A model generated the notes under the pieces. The model was not told where the DNA came from, ran no database searches, and saw nothing but the letters and a program-made list of their open reading frames with translations. Source: Escherichia coli (lineage in GTDB: Bacteria > Pseudomonadota > Gammaproteobacteria > Enterobacterales > Enterobacteriaceae). Taken from it: a stretch of 64,000 nucleotides of DNA. Position numbers and translations under genes: made by a program. The stretch lies in assembly GCF_016026235.1 (NCBI RefSeq), contig NZ_CP065613.1; one strand, written 5' to 3'. Of the stretch, positions 29,241-36,869 are shown piece after piece (positions within the stretch are counted from its first letter, which is position 1; each line of letters begins with the position of its first letter).

Positions 29241-29295
29241 GTCAGACATACCGATCTACAACATAATTGTAGGTCGGTAACGCCTGAATCCCCGA

Positions 29296-30048
29296 TCAGA
29301 GTAGTGATTTCACTTTATTTAGCAAAACGGCTACATCATCCGGTCGGGTATATCCCGTATCAGGGTCTATAATCGAGCTGTAAACATGTGGCATAATGCG
29401 CGGCACCCCCGCCTCCAGACAAGTTTTCAGAATCACACTGAAGTTATCCAAATCAATCCCGCCAGTCGGCTCAATCAGCGTCATACCATTGCGCGCCGCC
29501 GTGGTCGCCAGCGCGTATAGCTCCGGAAGCGACCTCTCGCCGCCCATCGGAAAGAACTTCGCCGCGTGTGCGCCCATATCTAGCATCATTCGCACCGCCG
29601 TATCGCAGGAGACGCGGGCAGGCGTACCCTGGCTGCTGCTAACGCCGGTGGAAATCAGCACTTCGCCCGGCGTCCCCGTCGGGCTAACCAGCGCGTTGAC
29701 ATGGGTCTGCTCACCGCCCGTAGCCGCAAGCGCGCCTGCCGCGAAACCACAACCGGTAAAGGTCTGGTTAACGTGTGCTGGATGAATCTGCGCCGCAATC
29801 ATCGCAGCTTTGTAATACTGCGCCGGGTCACCCGCCCCCAGACCTACTGAAATGGACGGTATTTCCGCCATCCAACGTTTAACTTCCTGGATCCCCTCAT
29901 CCACCGAGGAGAACTGCGCGGAAAGCACGCCAATCACTGCGTGGCCTTCGGCGGCGTCAAAGATTTCACGGGCATTGGCGATATCTTTCGCCAGCACATT
30001 AATTGCCACGCGATTACGATAGAAATTAATCTTTTGCATGATCTGCAA
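29296..30048 (-). CDS. KDPG-aldolase-like protein, DgaF-like
   Basis: 250-aa ORF; last gene of the PTS island; start overlaps the end of the upstream gene. Confidence 0.75.
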   Translation of the reverse strand: MQIMQKINFYRNRVAINVLAKDIANAREIFDAAEGHAVIGVLSAQFSSVDEGIQEVKRWMAEIPSISVGLGAGDPAQYYKAAMIAAQIHPAHVNQTFTGCGFAAGALAATGGEQTHVNALVSPTGTPGEVLISTGVSSSQGTPARVSCDTAVRMMLDMGAHAAKFFPMGGERSLPELYALATTAARNGMTLIEPTGGIDLDNFSVILKTCLEAGVPRIMPHVYSSIIDPDTGYTRPDDVAVLLNKVKSLL

Positions 30049-33812: not shown

Positions 33813-36611
33813 TCAGCTGTAGAGCAGTTCGTAGATATAAAAATATTCTGCGTCCGATAAACGGATAGCGTAAGCCTCTTCAATCGGCAAAAAGGAGGAT
33901 TTGATGACGCTAAAGGCACGAGCGTCCAGATCAAGCCGGTTTTCTAGCGCCATCTGTAACGGTTTGCGGTTAATCACGATACGCTCGACCATGCAGCAGC
34001 AGTGGATCAGAAAACGTAGTGTCACCTGGCGGCTCGGTTTCAGGGAGAGCGTGTTGGTTAAGTAGTTCAGAACATCCTCGATCTCTTTCAGAATTCGCTG
34101 CGGGTTGAGCACCGAAATATGGTTGATGATGCTCTCCATGGTCAGCGCGCTGATAAAGCGCATGGCGCTGCGCTCCATCTCCAGTCGGCGCTCGCTGCTT
34201 GAGAGATCCGGCGTCAGCAGGCTGAGCACCAGCTCCGGCCCTTGCTCGGAAAACAGTTCCTCCAGCGAGATAAACGGTATATCCGGCAGTCCCGGCTGGA
34301 AGGTGCCGACGATCCCTGCCAGCCGTTCACTGGCATTAAGCGCCTGCTGAATACGCTCCAGGCTGCGCACCTCGTTATAGTCGAGAATCACCATACGCGT
34401 GTCCTGCGACATCAGCTCGCCAAAGCTCTCCTCCAGCACCTTTTTGATCTTTTCCGCCGTCCCCATTCCGGTTATACATGAGATAACCAGCACTTTGCCA
34501 CCGCTCTCTTGCTGCGGCGTGCAGAGCCGACAAGGGATATTTTTACTCTGCATAAGCACAGCCAATTGCGATAGATCGCCAGTTTCGTAGCTTAAATCCA
34601 GCCCAACCTCCAGCAGGCTGGTCAGAGTGATATTTGGCAACAACAGAACGTCAATCTGGAACAGCTTGCTGATGGTGCTGCCAAAATGGACCAGCGATCC
34701 GATATCCACCATCAGTATCAGCCGCTGCCAGCACCGGTCCTGAATCATCCGGGTCAGGGTTTCCAGGGTGTCATGCACCGACTGCTCAAATGGCATATCA
34801 ATTGCGTAGAACAGATCGCGCTCCAGCACCCGGTTCACATATTGCGCCTGGCTCGTTGCGGTGGTCGCACCGTGAGCGATTAGAATCACGCCGCAATCCG
34901 GGCTGGTGTCGATGCGCTGGCGGTAGTGGCGACACTCTTTCAGGAACAGGCACAGCCAGACCACCTCCGTCGCCGGGCACTGAATATGCAACAACTCATT
35001 GATTTTGCGGCACAGAAGCGTGGCATTGTCATACTCATCTTTACAGCGATCCAGAATCAGGCTGGATGAATAGAGTTGAGGTATAAGCCCTCGCCGCACA
35101 TAGCCAATCAGCGCAAGAAAGTGTTTACGTAACGGGTTCGCCAGGTTTTCTGGCAATGTAAATCCTAATACCTGCTCCACGTAACCGATCAGCAGCGTCA
35201 CACGCTCCTCAATTTGATCGCCATAGCGCGGTGGATGCGCCGCACTATGGCGGCTATAAAGACCATATTCAAAAATCGAACTGAGTTTGTTTTTCAGGAT
35301 AGCCAGCGTTTCTGCGGGCGGCACGTTACTGTTGCGCAGATTGACATATTCACGAGTCAGGAAACTGTAAAACAGGTCGCTCTCTTCTATTTCCGCGCTG
35401 GTCGCCAACGAATTTTTTAACGCGGGCAACGTACGCGCATCCACGTTCAGACGATCTTTACCGCCAAACAACGCATCGACCAGCAGACGCTGCTCTGGCG
35501 TGGTATTAAACGACATCTCCGCCAGTCGTTTATCTAACTCTAGCGTATCATTACGCTCGGTCATTCCCGACGCCCACGCCTGCGCGCACAAGAACTGAAT
35601 ATCACTTTTAAGCTGGCCGATATTGCCTTCCAGGGGTTTACTTAACAACCAATGCAAGAGCGTTTTATCAAGGCTTATGGTACGTTCAATTTTACGACTT
35701 TCACGCTGAAAAAAGCTTACAATCAATTCGAGCTGCTCCTCGACCGAACGCTGGCGAATACCCGGTAAGTCAATACATACCTGGATACGCCGCTGGAAGG
35801 TACGCAATAGTGCCGAGTTGACCGACTCTGTAGTGGCGCAAATAAGGCGCACCGAAATTGAATATGTTGGCCCACTTGAACCAAGTGGGCGGTATTCACC
35901 TTTATCGAGAATAGAAAAGAGCTTCTCTTGTCCTTCGTACGGGAGGCGATGCACTTCATCCAGAAGTAAATAACCTCCGTCAGCTTGCTCCACCAATCCC
36001 GTTTTATTCTCACTTGCCCCGGTAAATGCCCCCTTATGGTGACCAAACAGATGTGAGGAAAGCAACTCCGGATTATGAGCATATTCGGCACAGTTAAAGT
36101 AAACCAACGGAGGTGGCGAACCTATGGTGTGCTTGCAAGCGAAGCAATGCATTAACTCAGCAAAGAATGTTTTGCCAACACCAGATGCACCGGTTAACAG
36201 CACATGTAGTCCGTGGGGATAAAGCACCGCTGCGCGGCCTTTTTCTACCGCATCACGGAGACTACGGTCGTATCCGATAAGTCCGGAAAACGGATCATCA
36301 TCTGTATATTTTTCTTTCTTTGGCAATAAACTAGCCACTGAATGAACTATGCATTCGCAATCATCCAGTTTTCGATTAATGAGCAATTCTAGTGCGTGAC
36401 GATGTAGAAAAAAAACAGGACGTCCCTGACTTTTTACCACCAGGCCTTCATTCCATAATTGATTAAGATCTTTACTAACCGAGTTGCGTGCCAGCCCAAG
36501 GTTAAAACCAATCGCCTCAGCAGTAAATGCTTTCTCCTTCGCTAAATCAGACAGTTCCAGCCCATACGTCAGCCGCTCCAGCTCCTTGTGAATAACATCA
36601 ATCCGTCTCAT
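33813..36611 (-). CDS. Sigma-54-dependent LevR-type transcriptional activator with PRD and PTS-regulatory domains (DgaR-like)
   Basis: ORF trimmed to ATG giving MRRIDVIHK...; AAA+ core with Walker A GASGVGKT and the GAFTGA motif. Confidence 0.85.
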   Translation of the reverse strand: MRRIDVIHKELERLTYGLELSDLAKEKAFTAEAIGFNLGLARNSVSKDLNQLWNEGLVVKSQGRPVFFLHRHALELLINRKLDDCECIVHSVASLLPKKEKYTDDDPFSGLIGYDRSLRDAVEKGRAAVLYPHGLHVLLTGASGVGKTFFAELMHCFACKHTIGSPPPLVYFNCAEYAHNPELLSSHLFGHHKGAFTGASENKTGLVEQADGGYLLLDEVHRLPYEGQEKLFSILDKGEYRPLGSSGPTYSISVRLICATTESVNSALLRTFQRRIQVCIDLPGIRQRSVEEQLELIVSFFQRESRKIERTISLDKTLLHWLLSKPLEGNIGQLKSDIQFLCAQAWASGMTERNDTLELDKRLAEMSFNTTPEQRLLVDALFGGKDRLNVDARTLPALKNSLATSAEIEESDLFYSFLTREYVNLRNSNVPPAETLAILKNKLSSIFEYGLYSRHSAAHPPRYGDQIEERVTLLIGYVEQVLGFTLPENLANPLRKHFLALIGYVRRGLIPQLYSSSLILDRCKDEYDNATLLCRKINELLHIQCPATEVVWLCLFLKECRHYRQRIDTSPDCGVILIAHGATTATSQAQYVNRVLERDLFYAIDMPFEQSVHDTLETLTRMIQDRCWQRLILMVDIGSLVHFGSTISKLFQIDVLLLPNITLTSLLEVGLDLSYETGDLSQLAVLMQSKNIPCRLCTPQQESGGKVLVISCITGMGTAEKIKKVLEESFGELMSQDTRMVILDYNEVRSLERIQQALNASERLAGIVGTFQPGLPDIPFISLEELFSEQGPELVLSLLTPDLSSSERRLEMERSAMRFISALTMESIINHISVLNPQRILKEIEDVLNYLTNTLSLKPSRQVTLRFLIHCCCMVERIVINRKPLQMALENRLDLDARAFSVIKSSFLPIEEAYAIRLSDAEYFYIYELLYS

Positions 36612-36869
36612 TTCTTTACCGCTTAAAAAACAATAGTTGTTCAGAACATACACTATTTGTAAACGTAAGAATGAGAACTATCGGGAAGAATTAATGTTCC
36701 TTGTGGCAATCTGGTTTCTGAATATTCGTGTTTTAAATATTACTTATGGTCTGAAACAACCAGGCAGGTGAACAGAGCTAAGAAAAAGTAGCGTAGAAAT
36801 ATAAAAACATATATCGCACTGATGAATGTTTCCCGGCATGACTATGCACACCGGGAAATATTTAGTAAA

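Follow-up and report, generated by a model that had tools for sequence, protein, structure and literature searches.

The segment at positions 29241-36869 of the window, by which we mean the whole 64,000-nucleotide stretch of Escherichia coli DNA that was analysed, is very probably the E. coli version of a known locus (dgaR with dgaABCDEF) for the uptake and degradation of the amino-sugar acid D-glucosaminate, a version in which a frameshift in dgaE blocks the catabolism of the substrate. The dga locus at loiP-speB is itself already described and is an ordinary accessory locus, because RefSeq annotates it here in 562 of the 5,426 complete E. coli genomes (~10%), where dagR, dgaE and dagF are named at the same site; the initial annotation had accordingly been right to expect an accessory island of a known type. 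In the lineage of this strain, the locus belongs to the Dga group by its ancestry but is probably no longer a working member, because its dgaE gene has a -1 frameshift.

Boundaries, gene content and orthology

The 7,629-bp segment stands in place of the 205-bp repeat-filled spacer that separates loiP and speB in K-12. In a comparison with K-12, homology ends at position 29240, the stop codon of loiP (28482..29240, plus strand), which is the left core flank, and restarts at position 36870, the stop codon of speB (36870..37790, minus strand), which is the right core flank. The adjacency of loiP and speB in K-12, which the initial annotation had given, is thus confirmed by synteny; neither the island in K-12 nor, by profile search, a closer PTS family was found. 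The seven minus-strand genes that had been placed between loiP and speB are indeed there, at exactly the coordinates given, and the eight open reading frames (ORFs) returned by a mechanical call are explained by dgaE being split into pieces of 243 and 126 amino acids.

Reading from loiP towards speB, all on the minus strand, the genes are dgaF (dagF; 29296..30039), which is intact and encodes a KDPG aldolase of the PF07071 type with 247 amino acids; dgaE (30026..31134), which encodes a SelA-like PLP-dependent lyase and is frameshifted; dgaD (31138..31995, with the RefSeq start at 31998), dgaC (31995..32744), dgaB (32770..33255, with the motif RIDSRLIHGQV present) and dgaA (33266..33694), which encode the EIID, EIIC, EIIB and EIIA components of a mannose-family PTS, respectively; and dgaR (dagR; 33813..36611), which is intact and whose product, with 932 amino acids, is a sigma-54 enhancer-binding protein of the LevR type. 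The TTG start of dgaA and its AGGAGG ribosome-binding site are kept across an alignment of 16 loci. Matches to PF03610, PF03830, PF03609 and PF03613, which were read from the products at the corresponding positions in A6-bearing loci (see below), identify the PTS subunits as separate EIIA-Man, EIIB-Sor, EIIC-Sor and EIID-AGA proteins. The genes loiP and dgaF converge on a hairpin with a 13-bp stem (29249..29279), which, at -21 kcal/mol (z -4.9) on one strand and -24.6 kcal/mol (z -3.9) on the other, resembles a bidirectional terminator, albeit one that lacks a U-tract; an Rfam search returned no match within the dga island.

The order and content of the genes had been likened to the D-glucosaminate locus of Salmonella, and the likeness holds at 84-97% amino acid identity: 88.0% for DgaR, 84.0% for DgaA, 91.9% for DgaB, 96.8% for DgaC, 97.2% for DgaD, 86.4% for the repaired DgaE and 84.6% for DgaF. 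The same order is found in the Salmonella locus, whose Pfam content is equal as well, and in another 30 loci from the Enterobacterales with matches to all seven proteins; the Salmonella locus was recovered via the sequence of PDB entry 7LC0, as the best 80 DgaE-matched loci of the genome scan included none from Salmonella. That entry is the crystal structure of Salmonella DGL, and the intact DgaE of the nearest genome matches it with an E-value of 1.8e-207. Three products pass the cut-offs of NCBIfam equivalog models, i.e. DagR (NF047795, 1521.5 bits vs. 1400), DgaE (688.9 bits vs. 600) and DagF (NF047796, 350.6 bits vs. 300).

The best NCBIfam matches of DgaA-D, on the other hand, are mannose-family models at the subfamily level only, below their curated cut-offs, and the specificity for D-glucosaminate is therefore deduced from the 84-97% identity and the linked enzymes. 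A permease of the Man, Aga, Gam, Sor or gfr type was considered and rejected, as every NCBIfam PTS equivalog misses its cut-off by a wide margin, in contrast to the equivalogs for the linked DgaE, DagF and DagR, which pass. It would be conceivable in principle that the E. coli permease and enzymes serve some substrate other than D-glucosaminate, given that DgaA-D fall under the cut-offs of every NCBIfam PTS model and that a literature search found no E. coli experiment on the dga locus; however, we regard this as extremely unlikely in view of the identity to the characterised Salmonella proteins, the equivalog-level matches of DgaE and DagF, and the retention of the cassette as a unit across the Enterobacterales.

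The frameshift in dgaE

Relative to the nearest genome, the lesion in dgaE is a one-base deletion that shortens an A7 run to A6, located at 30454..30459 on the minus strand (T6 on the plus strand, A6 in the gene, GGT AAA AAA TCT; intact alleles have A7). It leaves two ORFs: the first (31134..30403, 243 aa) comprises the native residues 1-227 followed by 16 out-of-frame residues, and the second (30406..30026, 126 aa) comprises the native residues 244-369 and overlaps the first as ATGA. The catalytic lysine of DgaE has been given as Lys-217 (PMC9529869), and the lysine of the SGAK motif is residue 213 by our count, a discrepancy that is immaterial since both positions lie upstream of the frameshift. 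The A7 version is found exactly in 559 of 560 complete E. coli genomes and the A6 version in none of the 560. Other E. coli dagR/dgaE/dagF loci, e.g. that of FDAARGOS_943, have A7 and an intact DgaE of 369 amino acids, whereas the locus in the window has A6 together with V348E, a private non-synonymous change at position 30093 (minus strand), downstream of the frameshift, that is seen only together with the A6 allele.

The six other dga genes are intact, so that the frames of the catabolic genes are open with the one exception of dgaE. The initial annotation, which had overlooked the frameshift, was correct as to the identity of the locus but probably not as to the functional operon that it implied, and the growth test on D-glucosaminate that it proposed would probably be negative because dgaE is frameshifted.

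Whether the operon might nevertheless be fully functional, either since the frameshift is a homopolymer sequencing error or since slippage bypasses it well enough for growth, was weighed against the public record. The lesion does affect a homopolymer, the kind of tract in which 454 and nanopore reads tend to go wrong, and some public A6 alleles are only 0-2 SNPs from intact haplotypes and occur in assemblies with other oddities. Yet the deletion is the sole single-base indel in the ~62 kb aligned to the nearest genome; public assemblies contain exactly this truncated product in 70 blocks; the C-terminal ORF with V348E is found on 10 contigs, always adjoining the truncated ORF; and among the public sequences searched, no intact DgaE allele with E348 is on record. 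A sequencing error in the window alone is unlikely on account of this isolated indel and of the linked private SNP seen elsewhere, and the lesion appears to be inherited rather than a read error because about 10 other public assemblies share both the truncated product and the linked V348E.

As to a bypass, a -1 slip on A6 would, by the sequence, recreate the exact wild-type DgaE, so low-level rescue by such a slip of tRNA-Lys, or by one A added in transcription, is conceivable, and the ATGA overlap could allow re-initiation and an enzyme made of two pieces. A run of six A is, however, short for efficient transcriptional slippage, which we counted against a rescue of this kind. Taking both routes together, we consider a fully functional operon very unlikely, and an inherited loss of DgaE remains the preferred reading.

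The A7-to-A6 deletion is found on up to four island haplotypes, each of which differs from an intact haplotype by 0-9 SNPs but from the A6 alleles in the other groups by 10-29 SNPs. Strain 165 has a different dgaE lesion, Q166*, and 2013C-4081 a duplication of 12 aa. A longer homopolymer, T8, lies in dgaR (36408..36415). The Salmonella DgaE has GRK at the position of the A7 tract and no such run. That the A7 tract of E. coli dgaE acts as a recurrent mutational off-switch is nonetheless an idea to which we give little credence. If it were true, loss of DgaE would be repeatedly tolerated or favoured or, alternatively, the tract would give reversible or leaky expression via slippage or ATGA re-initiation; a repeated lesion of the A7 tract would make a small, testable case of homopolymer-driven gene loss. 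Miscalled homopolymers may account for some of the other public A6 alleles, and two of the assemblies concerned also show shortened dgaR calls.

Distribution and origin of the locus

On the chromosome, the locus is polymorphic for presence or absence at loiP-speB, and it carries no mobility genes. The base composition, which the initial annotation had judged uneven by eye, proves to be so numerically, albeit modestly: in 1-kb windows, the GC fraction within the island is between 0.59 (in dgaE) and 0.44 (5' end of dgaR), while the range across the whole window is 0.426-0.590, and the island as a whole has 53.5% GC vs. 51.5% for the rest of the window. The further suggestion that the composition is consistent with horizontal acquisition holds in so far as the GC offset exists, which lends it weak support, but signatures of mobility are missing.

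A recent arrival as a mobile element would agree with the patchy distribution (562 of 5,426 genomes), with the different site, from yicS to eamA, at which Salmonella and Citrobacter carry the cassette, and with the GC3 of the PTS genes, which is 0.69-0.75 vs. 0.54-0.64 in the flanking core genes. Between E. coli and Escherichia sp. MOD1-EC7003, moreover, the island is 97.2-99.1% identical and the flanking genes 93.7-96.1%, and exchange between lineages is implied because the island is less diverged than its flanks. On the other side, the window contains no tRNA gene, no direct repeats bracketing the island were found, and there is no integrase or transposase among the annotated neighbours, loiP and speB enclosing just the seven dga genes; the GC content as a whole exceeds the background by no more than 2 points; and the cassette of Cedecea neteri, whose divergence resembles that of the flanks, occupies the same speB-loiP site. 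We therefore hold a recently acquired mobile element to be unlikely. The placement in Cedecea neteri fits a long residence of the locus at this site, from which many lineages would have lost it, while homologous recombination through the flanks would have spread it.

Regulation, predicted pathway and known relatives

A perfect match to the sigma-54 consensus TGGCAC-N5-TTGCT, the only exact one in the window, is found on the minus strand at 33733..33748, with the -24/-12 sequence TGGCACGTCCTTTGCT lying 38 nt upstream of the dgaA start. It is kept in 16 of 16 aligned loci, and its aligned counterpart in Salmonella is the dgaA promoter TGGCACAACCTTTGCTCT, to which the sigma-54 holoenzyme was found to bind (PMC3844500). 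Just upstream of the -24 element, a GTGACAC palindrome (33755..33761, minus strand) is kept in 15 of the 16 loci and reads GTGCCAC in Serratia. DgaR contains the Sigma54_activat domain PF00158 (E 3.2e-40), with GASGVGKT (Walker A) at 141, GAFTGA at 194 and LLLDE (Walker B) at 215, as well as two PRDs at residues 475-558 (a weak match) and 846-930; an EIIA-Man-like domain at residues 572-667 has matches in the EIIA-like domains of PDB 3gx1 and 3gdw, and His-497, His-580, Cys-712 and His-870 are invariant across 15 orthologues. The AT-rich spacer between dgaR and speB (36612..36869, GC 0.345), which is part of the island, is presumably the dgaR promoter region; a simple sigma-70 scan of these 258 bp upstream of dgaR found no site. 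A terminator for dgaR is not supported, as the hairpin that follows its stop codon falls short of significance (z -1.4).

The D-glucosaminate pathway, its regulation by DgaR and the LevR-like class of this activator have been described in Salmonella (PMC4987338), from which we infer the mechanism in E. coli, where function is assigned by orthology. HPr-dependent phosphorylation would activate DgaR, EII-dependent phosphorylation would inactivate it in the absence of the substrate, and the active form would direct sigma-54 RNA polymerase to the TGGCAC-N5-TTGCT promoter upstream of dgaA. The four-subunit mannose-family permease DgaABCD is predicted to take in D-glucosaminate and convert it to D-glucosaminate-6-phosphate, from which the PLP-dependent ammonia-lyase DgaE would yield KDPG and ammonia, and DgaF would then split KDPG into pyruvate and glyceraldehyde-3-phosphate. 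In the lineage of this strain, the deletion in the A7 run is expected to truncate DgaE after residue 227, while regulation, uptake and phosphorylation are probably intact. The strain therefore probably imports and phosphorylates D-glucosaminate and cannot catabolise D-glucosaminate-6-phosphate; growth on D-glucosaminate is not expected, and exposure to it might let the phosphorylated intermediate accumulate, which could even be harmful.

As a well-understood accessory catabolic trait, the dga locus is useful mainly for strain typing and metabolic modelling, and the presence of its genes serves to predict D-glucosaminate use. In the lineage of this strain, a prediction from gene presence would overstate the phenotype, as the regulator and transporter are intact but the lyase gene is not.

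Among the closest relatives are other E. coli loci; FDAARGOS_943, O26 RM10386, O103 RM8385 and O111 RM9322, for example, have the same genes at the same site, with more than 99.5% nucleotide identity. The Salmonella enterica D-glucosaminate PTS and catabolic operon is dgaR-dgaABCDEF, STM3773 and STM3772-3766 (Miller et al. 2013, summarised in PMC4987338). It shares with the E. coli island the seven genes, their order, the sigma-54 promoter of dgaA, the His residues of the LevR-type activator and the TTG start of dgaA, but it lies between yicS and eamA, beside mgtCB, rather than between loiP and speB. The dgaA leader of Salmonella and Citrobacter also has a repeat-element insertion of ~100 bp that E. 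coli lacks, and the N-terminal 110 residues of the E. coli DgaR are AT-rich in their coding and only 68% identical to Salmonella.

By its architecture, i.e. an N-terminal DNA-binding domain, an AAA+ sigma-54 domain, a PRD, an EIIA-Man-like domain and a second PRD, DgaR is likened to LevR of the Bacillus subtilis lev operon, whose His-585 and His-869 we take to be close to the DgaR histidines at ~580 and ~870; the lev system differs in having a Gram-positive host, a different substrate and different linked catabolic enzymes. The fructoselysine/glucoselysine PTS of Salmonella, gfrR-gfrABCDEF, is likewise a LevR-type, sigma-54-dependent, mannose-family PTS operon. It carries deglycase genes, not a SelA-like lyase and a KDPG aldolase, whereas the enzymes here are DgaE and DgaF. 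Its activator GfrR has no HPr-target histidine (PMC4987338), unlike DgaR here, which has His-580.

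Location and identity of the dga cassette

Along the window, the gene order of the E. coli chromosome is tkt, loiP, the island, speB, a lipoprotein gene and speA. The initial annotation had placed a D-glucosaminate PTS island of Salmonella-like order at 29241-36869, between loiP (28482-29240, plus strand) and speB (36870-37790, minus strand), and had described these two genes as adjacent in K-12. Comparison with K-12 MG1655 confirmed the adjacency, the absence of the island there and its location; since K-12 homology ends at 29240 and restarts at 36870, the proposed bounds are exactly those of the replaced segment, in which 7,629 bp stand in place of the 205-bp K-12 spacer. 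We take this spacer, from our own reading of its sequence, to consist of REP-type repeats. The open reading frames (ORFs) between loiP and speB all lie on the minus strand, at 29296-30048, 30026-30406 and 30403-31134 (the second and first pieces of dgaE, respectively), 31138-31995, 31995-32744, 32770-33255, 33266-33694 and 33813-36653. When 28200-38000 was used as a megablast query against 5,426 complete E. coli genomes, the flanks were matched in 5,425 of them, and a query coverage of at least 80% was reached in only 562, in which RefSeq names dagR, four mannose-family PTS subunits, dgaE and dagF at the loiP-speB site.

The dga interpretation of the island is supported by both family models and the Salmonella locus. 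The NCBIfam equivalogs of DagR (DgaR), DgaE and DagF (DgaF) scored 1521.5, 688.9 and 350.6 bits against curated cut-offs of 1400, 600 and 300, respectively, DgaE being scored with the nearest genome's intact allele in place of the broken copy of the window; the best NCBIfam matches of the four PTS subunits were mannose-family subfamily models only, all under cut-off. Amino acid identities to the Salmonella locus, which lies beside mgtCB and was found with the DgaE crystal structure sequence (7LC0) as query, are 88.0% for DgaR, 84.0% for DgaA, 91.9% for DgaB, 96.8% for DgaC, 97.2% for DgaD, 86.4% for repaired DgaE and 84.6% for DgaF. Among the matches listed, the seven-gene cassette also occurs in the same order in Citrobacter, Klebsiella michiganensis, Cedecea, Pantoea, Erwinia, Trabulsiella, Yokenella, Hafnia, Serratia, Rahnella and others, while Firmicutes and Actinobacteria hold partial cassettes (dgaA-F or dgaEF) at 40-65% identity.

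A frameshift in dgaE and its probable recurrence

In the window dgaE is split, a feature that the initial annotation had missed. Relative to the T7 run of FDAARGOS_943, the closest complete genome (6 SNPs in 9.8 kb), the window is one T short (T6 at 30454-30459), reading GGT AAA AAA TCT in the sense of the gene. Across the ~62 kb that align with that genome, no other single-base indel occurs. The first ORF comprises native residues 1-227 followed by 16 out-of-frame residues (243 aa), and the second begins at native Met-244, its ATG sharing bases with the stop codon of the first ORF (ATGA). The truncated DgaE retains His-163 and the SGAK lysine, and loses the C-terminal 142 residues.

The A6 version was absent from all 560 complete genomes in which this stretch is present; 559 match the A7 version exactly and one has a SNP. 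In the public assembly collection, 70 blocks contain the exact 243-aa product and 30,612 the common intact allele. A further change in the window, V348E, lies downstream of the frameshift; no intact DgaE with E348 is on record, and the E348-bearing 126-aa C-terminal ORF occurs on 10 contigs, each time adjoining the truncated ORF, which argues for a lesion passed down within a small lineage rather than a read error in the window. The dga copy of this lineage is therefore probably non-functional through a frameshift at the mutation-prone A7 tract.

The A6 alleles form four haplotype groups over 6.7 kb: the window with SRR17652795; SRR094949 with GCA_000250035 (0 SNPs from the O26/O103/O111 haplotype); SRR21970234 with ERR2594875 (2-3 SNPs from strain 165); and GCA_051590845 (2 SNPs from O43 RM10042). 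As the groups are 10-29 SNPs apart, they point to repeated deletion events at the tract. The assemblies of SRR094949 and GCA_051590845 also have shortened dgaR calls, and A6 in these two may be a homopolymer miscall; two origins are well supported, and there may be up to four in all. Codons 65-68 of dgaR contain an 8-base homopolymer (36408-36415, T8 in the gene) that is intact in the window and shortened gene calls of dgaR accompany A6 in two public assemblies, and this run could provide an internal check on homopolymer error rates. Other E. coli carry different lesions of dgaE: strain 165 has Q166*, 2013C-4081 has an in-frame duplication of 36 nt (12 residues), and the gene seems to have been hit repeatedly.

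The dgaA promoter and DgaR

The sole exact match to TGGCAC-N5-TTGCW in the 64-kb window, TGGCACGTCCTTTGCT (33748..33733, minus strand), sits 38 nt upstream of the TTG start of dgaA. A 16-locus alignment shows conservation of both promoter elements (-24 and -12), of the AGGAGG ribosome-binding site and of the TTG start, and in it the site aligns with Salmonella TGGCACAACCTTTGCT, listed as a sigma-54 holoenzyme binding site for dgaA (PMC3844500). In Salmonella, Citrobacter and Superficieibacter, a ~100-bp REP-like insertion (7180-7290 of the Salmonella locus L086; also in L008, L009 and L018) separates the promoter from the ribosome-binding site, whereas it is missing from E. coli, Cedecea, Klebsiella and the remaining loci. 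A GTGACAC palindrome (33755-33761, minus strand) abuts the -24 element and is kept in 15 of the 16 loci, Serratia having GTGCCAC; candidate binding sites for DgaR are this palindrome and the nearby 3' end of dgaR on its upstream side.

DgaR contains a Sigma54_activat domain (E 3.2e-40) with Walker A, GAFTGA and Walker B motifs, PRDs at 475-558 (a weak match) and 846-930, and residues 572-667 that match EIIA-like domains of LevR-type proteins in PDB (3gx1, 3gdw). His-497, His-580 (within ILIAHG), Cys-712 and His-870 are invariant across 15 orthologues. According to a review (PMC4987338), the operon encodes the permease and enzymes for the use of D-glucosaminate as carbon and nitrogen source, and DgaR is activated by HPr~P and, when D-glucosaminate is absent, phosphorylated and inhibited by EII.

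Origin, neighbourhood and known systems

The initial annotation had judged base composition uneven by eye and consistent with horizontal acquisition. The unevenness holds numerically: GC3 is 0.69-0.75 in the PTS genes versus 0.54-0.64 in tkt, loiP and speB, and the AT-rich portion is the 5' third of dgaR with its upstream spacer (36282-36869, codons 1-110 plus spacer; GC3 0.36 and GC 0.345, respectively). As a signal of acquisition, composition is weak (53.5% GC in the island versus 51.5% outside). Salmonella has a GC3 of 0.65 over the same codons, and DgaR identity is 68% over this part versus 88-94% in the remainder, coinciding with the low GC3; judged by these sequences, the AT-rich, fast-diverging 5' end is specific to Escherichia.

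A recent mobile insertion seems unlikely, since there is no tRNA gene in the window, no direct repeats were found bracketing the island, no integrase is among its annotated neighbours, and divergence from Cedecea is similar in island genes (77-89% nucleotide identity) and flanks (75-88%). Compared with the divergent lineage Escherichia sp. MOD1-EC7003, identity is higher in the island (97.2-99.1%) than in its flanks (93.7-96.1%). This lineage and Cedecea neteri carry the cassette between speB and loiP, as in the window, whereas in Salmonella and Citrobacter it lies between yicS and an eamA-family gene. On the simplest reading, the island would be a long-established chromosomal locus that many E. 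coli lineages have lost and that homologous recombination has moved between lineages.

A second accessory segment (37867-38801) adjoins the island between speB and speA, with a predicted 243-aa lipoprotein gene (37925-38656, minus strand) that matched no Pfam or NCBIfam family; O157:H7 and many other strains have the segment, and K-12 has 60 bp in place of ~935 bp. The alignment with speC (ornithine decarboxylase) of the nearest genome breaks off at 62150, leaving ~260 nt of the 3' end of the gene unmatched, and an IS110-family transposase ORF follows (62228-63403, plus strand, 391 aa, NF033542 273.7 bits), so this strain appears to have an interrupted speC. In FDAARGOS_943 an IS1 (L005 9834-10603) splits a sorbose-1-phosphate reductase / zinc-dehydrogenase gene; the window has no IS1 at the corresponding position (23112-23120), and its copy of the gene is uninterrupted. 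The meaB (argK) gene of FDAARGOS_943, flagged as frameshifted by RefSeq, misses ~60-90 bp found at 6717-6794, where the window appears to hold the intact form. Rfam matches above gathering threshold, all outside the island, are a Sib antitoxin RNA (294-444, 134 bits), ES036 sRNA (13471-13513) and naRNA4 (53335-53405).

E. coli has been described as lacking orthologues of these activators (PMC3844500), which we take to mean K-12. Our literature search found no paper with an experimental test of the dga locus in E. coli. The island is an already known locus, because KEGG-based surveys list a D-glucosaminate PTS in some E. coli and RefSeq names the genes, and the dgaE lesion is the one addition to it.
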